Positions 1 through 10,401 of a stretch of 10,401 nt of DNA are shown piece by piece. Made by a program: the position numbers and the translations under genes. The notes beneath the pieces were generated by a model. It saw only the letters and a program-made list of their open reading frames with translations. It was not told where the DNA came from and searched no databases. This DNA comes from a virus (Duplodnaviria; Heunggongvirae; Uroviricota; Caudoviricetes), in IMG/VR virus record IMGVR_UViG_2671180770_000023. One strand, 5' to 3'. Positions within the stretch are counted from its first letter, which is position 1, and the number at the start of each line of letters is the position of its first letter.

Positions 1-183
1 TTACCGCCGCAACCGCTCCGGCTTCTTCCAGTGGTACGTAATTTTTTCCTTCTCCCGATACATCTCAACGCGGCGACGGTAGGCCAGCAACTCAAGAACT
101 CTGGTTCGTATGTTGCGCATATCCACGCCATTAAGCTGGATACCATCACGGCGGATTAATCCCAGTATTTCGGCTTCTGTCAT
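1..183 (-). CDS. Hypothetical small protein (60 aa), basic C-terminus
   Basis: Complete ORF with ATG at 183-181 and stop TAA at 3-1 (window edge). GGGGG SD-like run 4 nt upstream. No family recognised. Confidence 0.4.
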   Translation of the reverse strand: MTEAEILGLIRRDGIQLNGVDMRNIRTRVLELLAYRRRVEMYREKEKITYHWKKPERLRR

Positions 184-216
184 TGTGCCCCCATCGCTCT
201 GATAGTCTGGTGTCGT

Positions 217-430
217 CGGGTCCTTCCTGGAATTATGGCCCGTTACGGGGCGGCGACCTCGCGGTTTTTATCTGTTTATGAAAATTTTTCTGGAAAAAGC
301 ATGTCGGTACTTCTCGAACATAACTATTTGTTTTTAAATAGATACACAATAAAAAGAAACGACACGGTAATCATCTAAAATGGCGATTTATGACGCTTTC
401 ATGTCGTTTCTCAGTTTTGTTCAATAATTG
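217..430 (+). other. Lambda-type cos site, copy A (cosQ-like 217-230, cosN 248-259, cosB-like 260-430)
   Basis: Contains GGGCGGCGACCT followed by CGCGGTTTTT...GTTTATGAAAATTTTTCTGG, which matches my recollection of the lambda left end. The cosB-like part has inverted 8-mers AAACGACA (357-364) and TGTCGTTT (392-399) resembling Nu1 R sites. Upstream CGGGTCCTTCCTGG resembles cosQ. Confidence 0.7.
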
Positions 431-438
431 CGCGTCTG

Positions 439-981
439 TTACTCGCCTTTCTTCTGTAGCAACTTTTCCGGTACGTTTCCGGTTGTTTCTTTCAAGTAAT
501 CAGCCAGTATCTGTGGGAGGTTGTCGGCAACTCTGGCACTGGCATTACAGGCTTTAACCACTTCCCTTTTAAGCCTATCCAGCATGGCGGGGGTAATCTG
601 TGGGAAGCTCCTTTGCATAGTAAGCGGGAGGCTGTCCATGATTGATGAAATCTGACTCGCCAGCTTTGAAAGCGCGTACAGGCAAAACTCAGTATCAATC
701 ACGTCACCGCGATCGCGCTCGTTTTTAAGTTCCTGCGCCTCCGCCTGTGCTGTCAGTAATCTGATCCTGACTCGTAAGAGTTCATCATCATCAATATCGC
801 CTTTGTCGTTTGTAAGCTGGCTAATTGCATTGTTAACCCTATTGTCTATCACGCTGGCAACATCGTAAAACGCCTCACGGCCTTTACGTTCAACGGGAGT
901 CACTCCCCACTTGTCGAACGCTGTCGCACTTACACGGCAGCTTTTCGCCATGTTTTTTTTGTTCATCAGGTGCGATTTCAT
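439..981 (-). CDS. Terminase small subunit, lambda Nu1 family (180 aa)
   Basis: Central and C-terminal region (LLTAQAEAQELKNERDRGDVIDTEFC...MDSLPLTMQRSFP) aligns well with recalled lambda Nu1 (LTRAQADAQELKNARDSAEVVETAFC...LDGLPLSVQRRFP). N-terminal winged-HTH region is more diverged. True start is uncertain (ATG at 981, 966 or 951); none has a clear SD. Confidence 0.8.
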   Translation of the reverse strand: MKSHLMNKKNMAKSCRVSATAFDKWGVTPVERKGREAFYDVASVIDNRVNNAISQLTNDKGDIDDDELLRVRIRLLTAQAEAQELKNERDRGDVIDTEFCLYALSKLASQISSIMDSLPLTMQRSFPQITPAMLDRLKREVVKACNASARVADNLPQILADYLKETTGNVPEKLLQKKGE

Positions 982-982
982 T

Positions 983-1020
983 AATACACCAACTTAATTA
1001 CTGCTTCAGGTTGGTGTATT
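983..1020 (-). promoter_or_regulatory. 11-bp perfect inverted repeat (AATACACCAAC / GTTGGTGTATT, 16-nt loop) abutting the terS-like start codon
   Basis: Arms at 983-993 and 1010-1020. On the minus-strand mRNA the 3' arm ends 1 nt before the AUG at 981, so any SD would sit inside the stem. Confidence 0.4.
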
Positions 1021-1089
1021 GTTTGCATCTTTCCCTTTTCATTCATAAAGATAGAGCAAACAACAAAACCACCACCACCCCCCTGAAAA

Positions 1090-1158
1090 AGCTCATAAAT
1101 AGCGAAAAACCGCGAGGTCGCCGCCCCGTAACGGGTCCATATGCCGGAAAGGACCCGT
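1090..1158 (-). other. Lambda-type cos site, copy B, inverted (cosN on minus strand = 1126-1115; cosQ-like 1158-1144; cosB-equivalent is divergent)
   Basis: Reverse complement of 1105-1135 is identical over 31 bp to 239-269. The cosQ-like ACGGGTCCTTTCCGG lies outward. Sequence between cosN and the terS start has no R-site-like 8-mers and carries a GGT/G-rich run instead. Confidence 0.65.
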
Positions 1159-1182
1159 AAAAAAAAGCCGGATTTCTCCGGC
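1159..1182 (-). terminator. Rho-independent terminator after the capsid operon
   Basis: On the minus strand: GCCGGA-gaaa-TCCGGC hairpin (1182-1167) followed by T8 (1166-1159), 7 nt past the stop of the 137-aa ORF. Confidence 0.6.
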
Positions 1183-1188
1183 CTTGTC

Positions 1189-1961: not shown

Positions 1962-3017
1962 TTAACCAATTTTGACGGTAACAAATTTGCGAATATCTGC
2001 CGGTACCGGCTGCGGTGCACTGTGTGTCTGCACGTACTCAATCGCCGGATCTCCGTCCTCAATCCAGTTTTTCGGGTAGTACATGTTTTGCGTTGCCCCC
2101 GTTCTTACTGCGTCCTGATCCATAATCGCACCATAGGCCACCAGCCCTTTATTGTTGGTGTTGCCCAGGACAAGCAAATCAGGCTCAAGGAAATATTTTT
2201 CTCTGCCGTCACTGTCGGCGTATTTGCCGGAATAGACGATAAGGGCAATATCGCCCAGATAGCCTTTAAAGCTCACCACTTCGCCCAGGTTTTTACATGC
2301 CAGCTCTGCGGCGGACTCTGAACCACGGGAAAGATCGTACAGCTCACGGAATTTTTTAAAGCTGCGTAACGTTCGCCATACCTCAGCGCCCATAATCATG
2401 ACGTTGGCGGGGCAACCTGCCTGATCGGCGTATAGTTCGATATCATAGATTGGATCGTGGATTTCTTTGTCCTGCTCTGACCATTTTTTACCGTCGGCCT
2501 GCTCTATGATGTTTTTTTCCGGTATCTTCCAGTCGATTTCATAGCGCTCTATGCCTTCGCCCTCAATGATGTTTTTTCCGGTCGTTACCGCATTTACCGC
2601 CAGCCATTCCACGCGCGCTTTTATGGCGTTTATCTGGCGGCGCATATTGCCAGTAATCAGGCGCATACGGCGATAGGTAGGGTCGTTAAGCTGTGCCGGA
2701 TCTTCTCCAGCCATGCGCATGATGGTTTTCGTTGGATCGATTTCGTGCTTTGGCTTCATGTAGCCAGGTTTGATTGTGCTGGTTTCGTACCCTTTATCGC
2801 GCTGAACCTGGCTACCCACCATAGGCGAACAAAACGCCGACATGGTGACTTCTTCAATGTCCAGGGTATCCAGCATGATGTTTTGCGTGCTGAATGTCGC
2901 CACGTTCGGGAAAAACAGCGTGGTAAACAGCGGACTGAATTTAAATTCCGCAATATCCCCGCGATTCAGGTACGCAAAAAGCTGGTTAGTGTTAAGTGCC
3001 ATTGCTTTTACTGTCAT
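1962..3017 (-). CDS. Major capsid protein, lambda gpE family (351 aa)
   Basis: FKFSPLF..LFFP...TSTIKPGYMKPKHEIDP...DPTYRRMRL...YPKNW...GDPA matches recalled gpE (FKFDPLF..LFF...TSEFTPGYVKPKHEVNP...DPAYRRRRI...YPKNW...GDPA). ATG at 3017 lies 4 nt after a G10 run on the coding strand. Confidence 0.85.
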   Translation of the reverse strand: MTVKAMALNTNQLFAYLNRGDIAEFKFSPLFTTLFFPNVATFSTQNIMLDTLDIEEVTMSAFCSPMVGSQVQRDKGYETSTIKPGYMKPKHEIDPTKTIMRMAGEDPAQLNDPTYRRMRLITGNMRRQINAIKARVEWLAVNAVTTGKNIIEGEGIERYEIDWKIPEKNIIEQADGKKWSEQDKEIHDPIYDIELYADQAGCPANVMIMGAEVWRTLRSFKKFRELYDLSRGSESAAELACKNLGEVVSFKGYLGDIALIVYSGKYADSDGREKYFLEPDLLVLGNTNNKGLVAYGAIMDQDAVRTGATQNMYYPKNWIEDGDPAIEYVQTHSAPQPVPADIRKFVTVKIG

Positions 3018-3463: not shown

Positions 3464-3874
3464 TCAGAACGGAATATCATCACCGTAGGGGTCATCGTCT
3501 CCCGCTGGTGGCTGATTACCCTGTGTGCCTGTGGTTTTGCGTCTGTTCCCGCCAGGACGTGCCGCACGGGCACTGATTACGCTGTCTGCAATAACCTGAT
3601 AACCCTGCCGCGTTTCCCCGTTCTGTCCGGTCCACTGGCTGACCTGCATCGTGCCGGATACGCTGGCAACGTCGCCTTTTTGATGTTTAGCCAGGAAGTC
3701 GGCCTGCTTACCAAATGCGATGACCGATAGCCATAACGTCGCCTGCCCATCCTGCGCCTGACTACATGGCAACGATACCGCCATACGCGCCAGCGTCATT
3801 GGTGTGCCCTTGCTGGTCTGTTTTACCTGCGGGTCGTCCACTAGCCGCCCGTAAGCGGCTATCTGTGCTGTCAT
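3464..3874 (-). CDS. ssb: Single-stranded DNA-binding protein (136 aa)
   Basis: OB-fold-like N-terminus, Gly/Pro/Gln-rich linker and the canonical acidic tail ...DDDPYGDDIPF. Start ATG overlaps the upstream stop as ATGA (3871-3874). Confidence 0.85.
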   Translation of the reverse strand: MTAQIAAYGRLVDDPQVKQTSKGTPMTLARMAVSLPCSQAQDGQATLWLSVIAFGKQADFLAKHQKGDVASVSGTMQVSQWTGQNGETRQGYQVIADSVISARAARPGGNRRKTTGTQGNQPPAGDDDPYGDDIPF

Positions 3875-4360: not shown

Positions 4361-4855
4361 TTATAAAAACGCGTCGCACTCGTCTGTTGTTATTGCGTTA
4401 GTCTGCGTTACCCCCTTAACTTTCCGCGTAATATATTCATGTCCGTAAACTTTTGCGGCAGGCTTCATAGCCTTGCCAAAGTCATTTACGTTTAGCGGTT
4501 TGCTCCTGCCTGCGTATGCCATAAACGCCAGATAGACGCGGTAAAGGCTGTTCCTGGTCGTGTACTTCACTGAATCGCCACCGCCGCCCATCATCAGGCC
4601 GCGTGCTTCCTCCAGAAAATTCAGGAACTGGCAAAACTCAATAACCGGATCCGTCTGTTGCTTTATTGCCAGAGCTTCATCACCGTCACGCTGTTCCAGT
4701 AGTAAAGCCCGTGCCTTCTCAGGGTCGGTAAAGTTCGCCAGCAATCGGCGGATAATGACAGGGATTTCAGCCGCGATCTTTTCCGGTAGCTCCCTGTCTT
4801 TTTCGGCCTCACTGACGATATTGTCGAAACGGAAAATCACGCGACGACGTGCCAC
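4361..4855 (-). CDS. P4-family primase/helicase, C-terminal segment, out of frame with the upstream segment (164 aa)
   Basis: Begins at a GTG. Sequence (A)RRRVIFRFDNIV...DPVIEFCQFL continues the conserved post-NTPase region expected after ...GVW in this family. Overlaps the upstream ORF by 19 nt in a different frame. Confidence 0.7.
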   Translation of the reverse strand: MARRRVIFRFDNIVSEAEKDRELPEKIAAEIPVIIRRLLANFTDPEKARALLLEQRDGDEALAIKQQTDPVIEFCQFLNFLEEARGLMMGGGGDSVKYTTRNSLYRVYLAFMAYAGRSKPLNVNDFGKAMKPAAKVYGHEYITRKVKGVTQTNAITTDECDAFL

Positions 4856-6108
4856 ACCCCGGCCCGTTCGGTGAATATCATCGGGTTATTGTTGGTCGCC
4901 AGCACCACCGCCCTGATTACAGCCGTGAAACGCTTTTCGTATTTCGGGTTAATTTCCACGGGGTCACCGCCCGTGATTTTCTTGATGCCCGTTCCTTCGC
5001 CTGTATATTTCGGCTGGTCAGCCAGGACGATAAGACGACTCCCGACAACCTGCGCACGTCCACCAGCATCATCAAGCGATGTCATTTCAGCGCTTACCGT
5101 GTTCTGTTTCCCTGCCAGAAGGCTGGCTATGTGCGTGAATGTACTTTTACCGCTCCCGCCGTCTCCGGTGGCCTCAATAAACATCTGCCAGTCGTACCGG
5201 TTCGCCATAATCATGTACAGCGCGGCACATATACGCATCATCTTGCGCGGGTCTTTTCCGGCTGCGTGCTTAAGCCATTTATGAAAGTTTGGCGCGTTAT
5301 CGCGGATGTTCTCCCCTGGTGCTGGTGGCGTGTACTCAATGCCGTTGTGCGTGGTGATCCAGTTCTCCGGCGTGTGCGGGGAAAATTCCCCCGTTTTCAG
5401 GTCAAGCGCACCATTGGCGAACGGCAGCAAATCGCCGGACGGCTCGCCCATTGGTTCGGCAATAACTTTTAACGCTTCCACGGCGTTATTGATTACGCGC
5501 TTGCTGAAAGTGGCCCTGTGCTCTGAATAGATCGCCACCATTTCGCGGCTAAGTTCCATTGTGCTGACCGGACACCATACCCCGCCGCGCCATACGTGAA
5601 CGATTTCACTTTCCTGATGCACACAAACGCCATCAAAGCGCTCGGCAAGCAGCTGCGCGCGCTCACTGTCTGCCATTTGTGCCAGTTGCGTATTTTTCTG
5701 CTCCGGCATGGTAAGCCCTGCGGCAATATTTTCACGCTCAGCATTCAGATAGCGCCGCCAGTTTTCACACTTCTGGACGTGCATTCCTTCGTGGTAAAAA
5801 TTTGCGTCCTGAATATCTGCCGCCGCCAGCTTCTGACCAATCTTTTTGGTCTCCACCAAATCCAGTTCTCCGGCCTGGTACAGCCTTACGCGTTTTTTTC
5901 CATCCGGAACAATTTTCAGTGCATCAAGTTCGGCAAGCTGATTTGGCCCAAGCCACACAGGCGGCACATTATCGCCGGATGCGGGGCCGTCCTGCTCCTG
6001 CCACTGTTTTGCATGTGCCCACGCATCACTACCCGCGAAAATAATTACCTCTGTGTCTTTGTGTTTTATTCCGCGTGGTTGTTTTTTTACGTTCGGTGCC
6101 AGTTTCAT
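4837..6108 (-). CDS. P4-family (D5-like) primase/helicase, N-terminal domain plus P-loop NTPase segment (423 aa)
   Basis: Walker A GDGGSGKST, Walker B-like RLIVLAD and KKITGGDPVEINPKYEKRF motif typical of the phage/plasmid primase P4-family C-terminal domain. AGGGG SD 6 nt upstream. ATG overlaps the upstream stop as ATGA. Confidence 0.8.
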   Translation of the reverse strand: MKLAPNVKKQPRGIKHKDTEVIIFAGSDAWAHAKQWQEQDGPASGDNVPPVWLGPNQLAELDALKIVPDGKKRVRLYQAGELDLVETKKIGQKLAAADIQDANFYHEGMHVQKCENWRRYLNAERENIAAGLTMPEQKNTQLAQMADSERAQLLAERFDGVCVHQESEIVHVWRGGVWCPVSTMELSREMVAIYSEHRATFSKRVINNAVEALKVIAEPMGEPSGDLLPFANGALDLKTGEFSPHTPENWITTHNGIEYTPPAPGENIRDNAPNFHKWLKHAAGKDPRKMMRICAALYMIMANRYDWQMFIEATGDGGSGKSTFTHIASLLAGKQNTVSAEMTSLDDAGGRAQVVGSRLIVLADQPKYTGEGTGIKKITGGDPVEINPKYEKRFTAVIRAVVLATNNNPMIFTERAGVWHVVA

Positions 6109-6860: not shown

Positions 6861-7080
6861 GTACCCCTCCGCATTTTTTTTCGTTAGAAATAAGCGTTCT
6901 TCTTTCCTGTTCATCGATCAGGAATACGCAGACCTCACCGCTAAGGCGTTTAAGTAAGCCGATGATTGCCCCTGATTCGCTGTCGGTCATCATGCCAGGG
7001 TAATCCTCTGCCAGTGCGCAAATAACTTCGATTTGGTGGGCGCGTTCTGCTGCCTGTTGTAGTGTGATTTCCTGGCTCAT
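6850..7080 (-). CDS. Hypothetical small protein (76 aa)
   Basis: ATG at 7080 overlaps the stop of the Icd-like gene as ATGA. The longer ORF-track version (start 7200) would overlap the Icd-like gene out of frame. Confidence 0.5.
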   Translation of the reverse strand: MSQEITLQQAAERAHQIEVICALAEDYPGMMTDSESGAIIGLLKRLSGEVCVFLIDEQERRTLISNEKKCGGVHVQ

Positions 7081-7244
7081 AAGCCTACCCCCTGACGAAT
7101 ACGGGCGACAAAAATCAGATGTGCGTGCGGCAGCTGGGCGCGGGCTTCGCGTTCTGTTGCTGCCGTGACGGTAAAGAGTGATGTTTGTTTTTCCTGGCAC
7201 TGCATAAAGCGCCAGACAAAGTAAGGGCGTGCGGATACAGCCAT
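7077..7244 (-). CDS. Icd-like / Ash-family-like small protein, copy 1 (55 aa)
   Basis: Motif VWRF...TEREAR...FVARIRQG. TAGGAGCC SD 8 nt upstream of ATG at 7244. Family call is from recalled motif, not a search. The frame stays open upstream to 7580 (see findings). Confidence 0.5.
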   Translation of the reverse strand: MAVSARPYFVWRFMQCQEKQTSLFTVTAATEREARAQLPHAHLIFVARIRQGVGL

Positions 7245-7530
7245 GTGAAAGGCTCCTACAGTAATTTTAAGGAGTCTCGCTACTACGCTGCTAAACGGGG
7301 TGGCGAGACGTAACAGGGTTAGCAGACTGGCACTGTAGGAACCAGCGAGCGCAAAGGCTCCCCCGTTACGCCCCGCCATAATGCGGGTATGGGTAGGCTT
7401 ACGGACACAAAAAAACCGCATATCGGAATATAAGCGGCTGTCCGCTACAGTATTCAGGCTGCTAAACCCGGTCGCCATGTGGGCGACGGGGGAAGCATAC
7501 AGCCCCGTTATAATTTTTTGCAAGCGGTTT

Positions 7531-7728
7531 TTACGCATGATGTGACCCCTGACGAATACGGGCGGCGAATACAGCAACACAACCGGACGGGCAACGGCTA
7601 CGCGCTTCGCGTTCCGTCCAGGCGGTTACGTGGATGATTTGAGATTCTCCGGCACTCAGTGCCAGAAAACGCCACACAAAGGCCGTTTGTGTGTGTACAA
7701 GGTGTGGTATATGATTTACAGCAACCAT
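7531..7728 (-). CDS. Icd-like / Ash-family-like small protein, copy 2 (65 aa)
   Basis: Motif VWRF...TEREAR...FAARIRQG, paralogous to copy 1. CTAGGAGCC SD 5 nt upstream of ATG at 7728. Confidence 0.5.
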   Translation of the reverse strand: MVAVNHIPHLVHTQTAFVWRFLALSAGESQIIHVTAWTEREARSRCPSGCVAVFAARIRQGSHHA

Positions 7729-7897
7729 AACGGCTCCTAGTTTACGTTGTTGGTTAGAAGCCCTGCGAGTGGTAACGACACTTGCGGGGCTTTGTCTTTT
7801 CATCGATTACCTTGATAAAGGTGTCAGCCACGTCAATAGTGTTTTTCCGTTTTCTTGTGTGTATACTGTCAGCCACCTAATAACGAGGAAATCAGAT
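7729..7897. promoter_or_regulatory. Divergent intergenic control region between the leftward early operon and the rightward small-gene pair
   Basis: Plus-strand -10-like TATACT (7862-7867) upstream of the RBS GAGGA (7884-7888). Direct 10-bp repeats TGTCAGCCAC at 7822-7831 and 7867-7876. I could not find a convincing -35/-10 pair for the leftward operon. Confidence 0.45.
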
Positions 7898-9159: not shown

Positions 9160-10401
9160 CTACACGGCTCGGATACCCCTTTTACCACTGGCGAGGGTTA
9201 CGCCCGTCGCCGCAGCCTCGACAAATTCGCCCCACCAGCGCATCAGCACGATGCGTTTTTCTATGTAGTTGCTCCGGTTGTATGCCCGTCTAACTTCGTT
9301 GGTGTCGACGTGGGCAAGTGCCGCCTCTATTACGTCCGGCTCGAATCCTTCCTCGTTCGCTGCTGTGCTGAATATGGCGCGTAATCCATGAGACACCAGC
9401 ACGCCAGCGAATCCCATACGCCGCAATGCTGCGTTAGCTGTCTGGCTGTTCATCGGCTGCTGTGGGTCTTTCAGACTTGGGAAAACGTAATTGCGGTGGT
9501 GGCTGATTGGTTTCATGGCCTCCAGCACCGCCATAGCCTGACCGGAAAGCGGGATAACGTGATCCCTGCGCATCTTCATGCGTCCGGCAGGTATCGTCCA
9601 TTGCTTCGCGTCCAGGTTGATTTCATCCCACCGCGTTGATGACGCTTCGGCGGGACGGGTTACGGTCAGTAACTGCCATTCAATCAGTAATCTGGTCTGC
9701 CGTTCTGTTGCCGATACTGATAAAGCCTGCATAAGCTCCGGCAGCTGTTCGGGGCGGATTGTTGGCATATGTTTTTTTACAGGTGAGGGAAACGCCTTAC
9801 GCACATTCATAGCCGGATTGGCATCAATCAGCCCACTGTTGGCGGCGTAATCCATTACCTCATTAACGCGCTGTAAAACCCGCTTGAGTGTTTCCAGGTT
9901 GCCGCGCTCCTTGATGGGGGTAAGCACTTCAACGAACCTTCGGGCGGTGAGGGTATCTATTGGCGTGTTGCCGATGAACGGGAATACATATTTATCCAGC
10001 GAACGCCAGATGTCTTTAATCGTGTTGGGGGCCAGATTCTGGCTGATTTTCACCTGGTACCATGCCGCCGCCACATTTTCGAACGTGTTCCCTTGTCTTC
10101 GGGCCTCTGTCTCTCTTTTTTGCCTCTCGTGGTCCTGCGGGTCAGTTCCGGCACTGATTAACGTCCTGTACTCGCTACGGCGTTTTCTGGCATCAGCCAG
10201 GGAAACATCTTCAAGCGATCCAAAACTCAGCAATATTCTTTTTTTGTCCGATGGTCGGTAGTAGGAAAATCTCCAGAGTTTTGATCCAGACGGTTTGACC
10301 AGGAGAAAAAGCCCTCCGCCGTCCTGCAGGGTGTACTCCTTTTGCGCTGGTCTGGCTGCTTTGATCTGCACTGTGGTTAATGGGTGTGTTTTTCTCGCCA
10401 T
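9160..10401 (-). CDS. int: Tyrosine recombinase, P4-type integrase (413 aa)
   Basis: N-terminal arm-binding-like region (GGGLFLLVKPSGSKLWRFSYY...) typical of P4-like integrases. Catalytic H-x-x-R (HGLRAIF) and C-terminal Tyr region (RAYNRSNYIEKR). ATG is the last three bases of the window. Confidence 0.9.
   Translation of the reverse strand: MARKTHPLTTVQIKAARPAQKEYTLQDGGGLFLLVKPSGSKLWRFSYYRPSDKKRILLSFGSLEDVSLADARKRRSEYRTLISAGTDPQDHERQKRETEARRQGNTFENVAAAWYQVKISQNLAPNTIKDIWRSLDKYVFPFIGNTPIDTLTARRFVEVLTPIKERGNLETLKRVLQRVNEVMDYAANSGLIDANPAMNVRKAFPSPVKKHMPTIRPEQLPELMQALSVSATERQTRLLIEWQLLTVTRPAEASSTRWDEINLDAKQWTIPAGRMKMRRDHVIPLSGQAMAVLEAMKPISHHRNYVFPSLKDPQQPMNSQTANAALRRMGFAGVLVSHGLRAIFSTAANEEGFEPDVIEAALAHVDTNEVRRAYNRSNYIEKRIVLMRWWGEFVEAAATGVTLASGKRGIRAV

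Follow-up and report, generated by a model that had tools for sequence, protein, structure and literature searches.

A predicted Nu1-family small terminase and its divergent cosB occupy the rppA slot of an EcCICFT073-type phage-inducible chromosomal island

INTRODUCTION

[quoted passage not shown] The SaPI TerS pairs with the helper large terminase (TerL) and recognises satellite DNA only (PMC6739421). The Rpp proteins of EcCICFT073-type cos PICIs (Fillol-Salom et al. 2019, PMC6739421) are thought to be derived from TerS; they are 139–154 aa long, ~30–40 residues shorter at the C-terminus, and apparently without the TerL-binding region (PMC9026076). Both cos sites of EcCICFT073 are functional (PMC6092414), and the same group noted the presence of two such sites and asked why (PMC6739421). 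Here we analyse a 10,401-nucleotide stretch of DNA (IMG/VR virus record IMGVR_UViG_2671180770_000023; the window) in which a 180-aa terS gene, at 439–981 on the minus strand, lies between two inverted cos sites at the position taken by rppA in EcCICFT073.

The gene is already known as the annotated terS of a published PICI, and the idea of an island TerS is not new. Its product is 100% identical to WP_000835278.1, the TerS of EcCIIHE3034 (Escherichia coli IHE3034, NC_017628.1 920272–930825), Nissle 1917 and MS 21-1, and the islands of strains IHE3034 and 18098 (EcCIIHE3034 and EcCI18098) were stated to encode TerS by Fillol-Salom et al. 2018 (PMC6092414). EcCIIHE3034 shares the identical TerS and the architecture of the island studied here and differs in its integration site and in its DNA, which is ~94–95% identical over the aligned late and replication regions and 84–93% identical in shorter blocks. 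The published account of EcCIIHE3034 consists of the annotation and a single transfer test; cosB, the type of DNA-binding domain (DBD), and the C-terminal alleles are not described there. Literature searches for functional work on the TerS of a cos-type PICI yielded nothing beyond the 2018 annotation and the negative transfer test.

RESULTS

A predicted full-length small terminase without a large terminase

The minus-strand open reading frame (ORF) at 439–981 is a real coding gene, terS, whose product is divided into a predicted N15-type winged helix-turn-helix (wHTH) at residues ~5–56, a conserved helical core at residues 63–127, and a variable C-terminal module at residues 128–180. A sequence-only reading of the window had taken this product for an island-borne Nu1-type small terminase, and profile searches agree. 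Specifically, the Pfam family Phage_Nu1 (PF07471) matches residues 33–148 with E=2.3e-23 and 83 bits, above the curated cut-off of 30 bits, while PHROG 57 'terminase small subunit' matches residues 1–174 with E=3.1e-53. Furthermore, hhalign aligns a profile built from 28 island homologues with a profile of the lambda, phi80, 21 and PhiR5_1 TerS proteins over residues 6–166 (99.95% probability, E=6.6e-38, 40% identity). The island TerS is alignable to lambda Nu1 up to residue 166, including the C-terminal region, which in Nu1 is the part that binds TerL; the protein is thus predicted to be a full-length Nu1-family small terminase. A 12–13-aa tail at its C-terminus is absent from phage TerS proteins, and the stretch of terS coding for this tail holds an 11-nt tandem duplication at 462–483 (ACTTTTCCGGT / ACGTTTCCGGT, plus strand).

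The second element of the sequence-only reading, the lack of a large terminase gene, is confirmed by the ORFs and Pfam matches of the whole window, which include none, and no TerL remnant is found in any frame 3′ of the terS stop codon. That reading had left room for an ordinary phage TerS whose same-lineage TerL lies just left of the window. In four complete genomes with an identical TerS, chromosomal yejO, phoQ or clpS is located directly past the last small island ORF, which excludes a TerL immediately left of the window for this island family and rules out the ordinary phage arrangement.

The terS cassette replaces the rppA cassette

The window is syntenic with EcCICFT073 and EcCIIHE3034, with 90–96% DNA identity over the late and replication regions, and is classified, from its gene content, as a ~10-kb PICI of this type. 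EcCICFT073 (L007 7931–18655) has the same gene order, with a 144-aa RppA in the position of TerS, and its cos1 and cos2 have the same inverted arrangement as two sites of the window, cosR (979–1157, minus strand, upstream of terS) and cosL (215–412, plus strand), which are their respective equivalents. A 790-bp specificity cassette (cosB–terS–cosB′, 295–1084) replaces the 662-bp cosB1–rppA–cosB2 of EcCICFT073 (L007 17601–18262). In blastn comparisons, homology to EcCICFT073 covers window 3460–1085 at 95.6% and 294–149 at 94.5%, resuming on both sides inside the inverted cosQ–cosN–I2 copies. Such breakpoints are suggestive of recombination within the cos repeats, by which cassettes were exchanged or possibly inverted. 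TerS and Rpp are alternative occupants of one specificity slot, and the precise replacement of cosB1–rppA–cosB2 implies an equivalent role for the terS cassette.

Rpp and the island TerS share the slot just downstream of the island cos1-type site, between the same inverted cos copies, an N-terminal wHTH that in Rpp is related to TerS, and, as far as the comparison goes, the same purpose, a private cosB for the island. They differ in length (139–154 aa versus 180 aa), and Rpp appears to be without the Nu1 C-terminal region, all of which is retained in the island TerS. RppA matches PHROG 57 over residues 7–47 only, that is, over its DBD. A comparison with known Rpp sequences gave no support for homology: BLASTP detects no similarity between the island TerS and RppA (E=1.4), and a phmmer search of PDB sequences returned no Rpp chain. 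With respect to the likeness in logic to Rpp and TerS-swap strategies suggested earlier, a shared genomic slot is thus seen and similarity to RppA is not. Rpp itself works by binding the helper TerS and blocks helper packaging.

The DNA-binding domain belongs to the N15 subclass

The sequence-only reading had offered, as evidence for redirected specificity, a C-terminal two-thirds well conserved against Nu1 and a much more diverged N-terminal wHTH. The alignments do not bear this out. Identity to lambda Nu1 is flat along the protein, at 38, 40 and 38% over residues 1–50, 51–90 and 91–167 in one MAFFT alignment and at 30, 40 and 38% in a second, in which the last 40 residues are 28% identical. 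The asymmetry is also wrong in direction, as within the island family the DNA-binding end is the best conserved part and the C-terminal 50 residues are the most variable. The N-terminal difference from lambda consists of three deletions (3+3+11 aa), with no excess of substitutions, which leave the DBD 17 residues shorter than that of lambda. These missing residues explain why the Pfam alignment begins only at residue 33 and why the phmmer search of PDB sequences yielded neither Nu1 nor Rpp chains at E<=10, but chance matches only.

Residues 1–50 of the island TerS are 59% identical to N15 gp1 and 60% identical to the TerS of Pseudomonas phage Hali, while its C-terminal part is 34–41% identical to these two proteins. 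On this basis the island DBD is assigned to a known subclass, a well-conserved, compact wHTH of the N15/Pseudomonas-phage type, rather than to a Nu1 end that has drifted. The sequence of the recognition helix is SATAFDKWG in the island protein, SVQAFDKWG in N15, and SIRTIQNWQ in lambda. In support of the earlier idea of a changed DNA-reading element, the helix differs from that of lambda at most positions. N15 gp1 is the closest phage relative overall (46% identity), with a nearly identical recognition helix; its C-terminus, however, is lambda-type (82% to lambda), and that of the island is only 40–41% identical to it. Sequence alignment places the N-terminus of the island TerS on the helix-turn-helix and wing of the lambda DBD, and the AlphaFold2 model contains a strand, helix 8–15, helix 21–25, a two-strand wing at 31–40 and helix 41–56, with predicted local distance difference test (pLDDT) scores of 70–81 there. 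Both AlphaFold2 runs, on the full protein and on residues 1–62, used a 28-sequence alignment, and the models were used for secondary-structure topology only.

terS adjoins a cos site with divergent R boxes

The terS-linked site, cosR, is arranged in the order cosQ, cosN, an I2-like block, and three related G/T-rich boxes. The cosQ core, CGGGTCCTT, is located at 1149–1157 (minus strand), and the lambda-type cosN, GGGCGGCGACCT, at 1115–1126 (minus strand), 145 bp upstream of the terS ATG. The spacing between cosN and the ATG is 142–150 bp in nearly all island lineages of E. coli, Enterobacter and Citrobacter. The lineages L020 and L021 carry a variant cosN, GGGCGTCGACCT, with one cohesive-end change, 142–145 bp upstream of terS. 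The R3-like box, TGGTGGTGGTTTTGTTGTT (1059–1077, minus strand), occupies bp 50–68 from the cohesive-end start, the canonical R3 position, and resembles the N15 R3, GAGGTTGTTGTTT, mapped to bp 48–60 (PMC9026076). The R2-like box (1008–1021, minus strand) is inverted relative to R3 and reads GGTTGGTGTATTGTTTGC on the plus strand at 1009–1026; the inverted copy, spanning 1008–1026, forms an 18-nt inverted repeat with 1056–1073 at 78%. The R1-like box, GTTGGTGTATT (983–993, minus strand), abuts the terS start codon, is an exact 11-nt inverted repeat of 1010–1020, and is present only in the E. coli 180-aa lineage. The direct, inverted and direct boxes reproduce the layout of lambda R3–R2–R1.

The R3-like and inverted R2-like boxes are kept across the E. 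coli, Enterobacter and Citrobacter lineages despite diverged cosB surroundings. This phylogenetic footprint, in parallel with a DBD that is 74% identical between genera, shows joint conservation of the boxes and the DBD. In N15 and Hali, too, the DBD of this subclass is accompanied by a similar GGTTGTTG box, equally far from the end of the genome (GAGGTTGGTTGTTG in Hali). In line with the earlier description of a divergent cosB beside terS, the island cosB differs from those of lambda, 21 and phi80, and no cosB similar to that of cosR is found in 50,697 phage records. A scan for integration host factor (IHF) consensus sites, which recovered lambda I1 as a control, found none in cosR.

Taken with lambda, the island system shares the family, the domain order, the cosQ–cosN–cosB–terS layout, and the R3/inverted R2/R1 arrangement. 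It differs in that identity to Nu1 is 30–40% throughout, the DBD is shorter, the R-box sequence is different, cosB is without an IHF-consensus site, no TerL gene overlaps terS, and TerS carries the C-terminal tail. In N15 the G/T-rich R3 box lies at bp ~48–68, as in cosR, but the N15 cosB consists of R3 only, whereas that of the island adds the inverted R2-like and the R1-like boxes, and N15 encodes its own TerL.

The second cos site is of phage type

On the other side of terS, cosL comprises, on the plus strand, cosQ (217–225), cosN (248–259), R3 (300–312), an IHF-type I1 (319–333), R2 (354–366, inverted) and R1 (400–412). The two cosN copies, identical and inverted, flank terS inside a 72-nt inverted repeat at 82%. 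In alignment, R3, I1, R2 and R1 correspond to elements annotated in phage 21, the R3 core TGTCGGTACTT being identical, and the three box matches in the window occur at cosL only (0.15 expected by chance), with an IHF-consensus site at the I1 position. Of the 50,697 phage records, 88 match cosL, the best being PhiR5_1 (83% from cosQ to R2). By these matches cosL is assigned as a complete cos of the phage-21/PhiR5_1 type. In this respect the island resembles P4 and the cos SaPIs, which carry a helper cos, as cosL is a complete helper-type cosQ–cosN–R3–I1–R2–R1; it differs from them in that cosL is a second, inverted site, missing from many related islands. In particular, many TerS-bearing lineages (L013–L022) are without cosL/cos2 and retain cosN–cosB–terS.

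The C-terminal module is allelic

Among the E. coli variants, residues 1–50 and 63–127 are 92–93% identical, while residues 128–167 are 70% identical. Between genera, the two former segments are 68–74% identical, with the DBD at 74%, while the C-terminal module falls to 30%. The ratio of nonsynonymous to synonymous substitution rates (dN/dS) is ~0.2 in both parts of terS, and dS is 4–9x higher in codons 128–180 than in the rest of the gene. The combination of raised dS with low dN/dS indicates that C-terminal modules are exchanged by recombination, each allele being under purifying selection. Phage TerS C-termini and TerL N-termini sort into corresponding classes, and the allelic C-terminus of the island TerS thus resembles what a partner-matching surface would look like; recombining yet functional alleles fit such a surface.

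The closest C-terminal matches among the 50,697 phage records are PhiR5_1 (58%), PhiR12 (53%), and lambda and N15 (40–41%). When the C-terminal 76 residues were used to search for a prophage TerS sharing the module, fragments of the island's own protein were the only hits. In one E. coli island that is embedded in its presumed helper, the TerS of the surrounding prophage is lambda Nu1, and the island TerS is 44% identical to it over residues 91–167; a match of the island C-terminus to the TerS of the presumed helper was considered for this island and ruled out. Of the sequence that the island TerS shares with every phage Nu1 homologue, the central RLxxAQAxAQELKN helix is the most conserved stretch.

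Distribution of the cassette

Of 5426 complete E. coli genomes, 768 have the terS-plus-cosB segment, almost always intact; among them are Nissle 1917 and strains of O157:H7 and O103:H2. An intact 180-aa terS is present in hundreds of genomes. The RppA cassette, at 80% coverage, is found in only 53 of the 5426. Islands of Enterobacter and Citrobacter that share this layout carry homologues at 58–60% identity, and across genera terS and the R boxes are conserved in PICI context only.

Many of the Enterobacter/Citrobacter-type islands are inserted in the capsid gene E of a lambdoid prophage, and an E. coli variant island (L027 8118–17998) is inserted in a prophage portal gene. These TerS islands inside prophage late genes match the helper-embedded PICIs of PMC10111431, and the helper-embedded TerS-type islands (L027 8118–17998; L013–L016, L022–L024) are without a second cos. 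P0086 (232 aa), another variant in E. coli, joins ~133 N-terminal residues of TerS to a c1504-like protein; the TerS C-terminus is lost, presumably together with the second cos (cos2).

Other genes of the island

The ORFs and Pfam matches of the window include the features expected of a PICI: an integrase, a regulator of the alpA type and a D5-type primase, with few late genes, none of them for lysis or tails, and a non-prophage att site. The minus strand encodes the integrase (9160–10401), the D5-type primase (4361–6108), a single-stranded DNA-binding protein (SSB; 3464–3874), a lambda-E-type capsid protein (1962–3017), a gpD-type decoration protein (1615–1950), and, between the decoration gene and cosR, a 137-aa ORF (1189–1602) that matches PHROG 1999 (unknown function, E=4e-66). 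This ORF also matches the C-terminal positions 495–567 of the 583-position head maturation protease profile PHROG 53 (E=6e-9), a region that we take to be the Nu3 scaffold in lambda; the island may carry capsid, decoration and scaffold homologues. The last island ORF (1–183, minus strand) is a 60-aa c1504-like ORF (PHROG 1561, E=3e-28); compared with the 93-aa form that CFT073 and Nissle carry, it has lost 33 internal residues in frame.

At ~4857, a 1-nt deletion relative to EcCICFT073 (CCGGAGG to CCGG-GG) breaks the 584-aa primase into ORFs of 423 aa and 164 aa; this copy may be replication-defective, or the frameshift may be a sequencing error. At 7077–7803 (minus strand), two adjacent ORFs have similar ends, …TEREARAQLPHAHLIFVARIRQG… and …TEREARSRCPSGCVAVFAARIRQG…, and Icd-like cell-division inhibitor genes are annotated at the corresponding place of related islands. 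Between the 137-aa ORF and cosQ lies an intrinsic-terminator-like hairpin (1164–1185, minus strand; 9-bp stem with 5 G-C pairs, followed by a T run), at which transcription from the capsid operon may stop before it reaches terS.

DISCUSSION

A small terminase that is island-borne and TerL-less, adjoins a divergent cosB, has a changed recognition helix and occupies the rppA slot is most naturally read as having a role in packaging specificity. The packaging-redirection role proposed earlier is accordingly retained on account of the slot, the private cosB and the missing TerL, and not on account of the asymmetry between the two ends of the protein. The general idea that an island TerS has a DNA specificity of its own and uses the helper TerL is reasonable, and we consider it somewhat better than an even chance (probability of roughly 0.55) that the private R boxes are bound by the island TerS, which brings a helper gpA-type TerL to the shared cosN, making packaging independent of the helper TerS. 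In such a mechanism, a lambdoid helper would induce the island, which would replicate as concatemers. The N15-type wHTH of TerS would bind the G/T-rich R boxes of the adjacent cosB, and TerS would recruit the gpA-type large terminase of the helper to the lambda-type cosN. Island DNA would then be cut and packaged into helper capsids independently of the TerS/cosB specificity of the helper, with cosL, through its phage-21-type cosB, serving as a fallback that a 21-type helper holo-terminase could use directly.

By analogy, the proposed system would correspond, among cos-type satellites, to the strategy of the SaPI TerS, and would be an alternative occupant of the EcCICFT073 Rpp slot. The likeness to the SaPI TerS is one of logic: in both, a satellite small terminase would work with a helper large terminase on satellite DNA only, whereas SaPIs package by the headful (pac) mode, reside in another host phylum, and have Ppi as a partner. 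A further step, which we offer tentatively and with the odds leaning against it, is that cosB–terS–cosB′ is a portable specificity cassette exchanged with the Rpp cassette, constituting a third cos-hijack strategy through a chimeric terminase, in which the C-terminal module retunes the helper range and the helper-type second cos is the fallback.

Several observations weigh against recruitment of a helper TerL by a TerS with private specificity. With respect to the partner, residues 128–167 of six island alleles are 18–48% identical to those of five phage classes and never exceed 50%. In the helper-embedded E. coli island, the last 40 residues of TerS are 38% identical to the lambda-identical Nu1 of the surrounding prophage. 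As a comparison point, the TerS proteins of lambda and phage 21, which have distinct TerL specificities, are 37% identical in the C region (residues 91–167). With respect to structure and DNA recognition, the mean pLDDT is low (62.8 for the full protein, 62.2 for residues 1–62), and Foldseek against the PDB gives no match at E<0.3 for the full model or at E<3.8 for the model of residues 1–62, only non-significant, weak wHTH matches to MerR, LysR and excisionase proteins. Furthermore, N15 gp1 also accepts lambda cos (PMC9026076), on the strength of which the specificity of the island TerS may not be fully private. With respect to expression, a terminator-like hairpin lies upstream of terS, no sigma-70-like promoter is found between the hairpin and terS, and no clear Shine-Dalgarno sequence precedes the ATG. 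With respect to mobilisation, the primase of this copy is frameshifted, and in the only experiment on record, induction of the native strains with mitomycin C gave no transfer of EcCIIHE3034 or EcCI18098, in contrast to EcCICFT073 (PMC6092414).

The slot itself, lying between the same inverted cos flanks as rppA, would also suit a protein that acts as Rpp does, forming mixed oligomers with the helper TerS through the DBD dimer surface or the helical core, so that the helper terminase is diverted to the island cosB and TerL is brought by the helper TerS. The conserved central helix is a plausible surface for such hetero-oligomerisation, Rpp is itself thought to be TerS-derived (PMC6739421), and it points the same way that in the helper-embedded island the C-terminal region matches the presumed helper's TerS poorly. 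We nevertheless regard this mode as unlikely. The island TerS shows no similarity to RppA in BLASTP and retrieves neither Rpp nor Nu1 chains from the PDB sequences; it keeps, under purifying selection (dN/dS ~0.2), a complete C-terminal module that is apparently missing in Rpp; and, with a DBD that is without 17 residues of the lambda type, mimicry of a lambda-type dimer partner is less obvious.

A role mainly in interference or regulation, in which TerS titrates the helper TerL, or binds the R1 box at its own start together with the cos region, and thereby lowers helper yield while the island is packaged through cosL, is less probable again. Although a helper terminase could use cosL, as a complete 21-type cos with an IHF site, without further aid, and both cos sites of EcCICFT073 are functional (PMC6092414), cosL/cos2 is absent from the many lineages that keep cosN–cosB–terS. 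Likewise, the R1-like box overlaps the start of terS, but the R3 and R2 boxes stand at the canonical distance from cosN, a placement needed for cutting rather than for regulation. That terS is an inert remnant, an ordinary phage TerS left over from the left end of a captured or decayed prophage and now without a role, is very improbable: hundreds of genomes have the gene intact at 180 aa, its dN/dS is ~0.2, it is conserved with its R boxes across genera in PICI context only, and no TerL remnant follows it. In favour of such a remnant are the broken primase of this copy, the truncated and fused variants (P0086), and the failure of TerS-encoding islands to transfer in one published test (PMC6092414).

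The present case is a modest discovery: a published island already has the gene annotated, and the SaPI TerS works by the same logic. What the analysis adds is the predicted N15-type specificity, the private cosB, the exact swap with the rppA cassette, and the recombining C-terminal module. The terS cassette is common in E. coli (768 of 5426 complete genomes) compared with the RppA cassette (53 genomes), the one that has been studied in detail, and an account of how TerS works would reveal which helpers serve a large, silent class of islands in E. coli. Together with the allelic C-terminal module, the conserved pairing of the DBD with its R boxes offers a natural system for mapping the rules of TerS–cosB and TerS–TerL specificity in lambda-like terminases.

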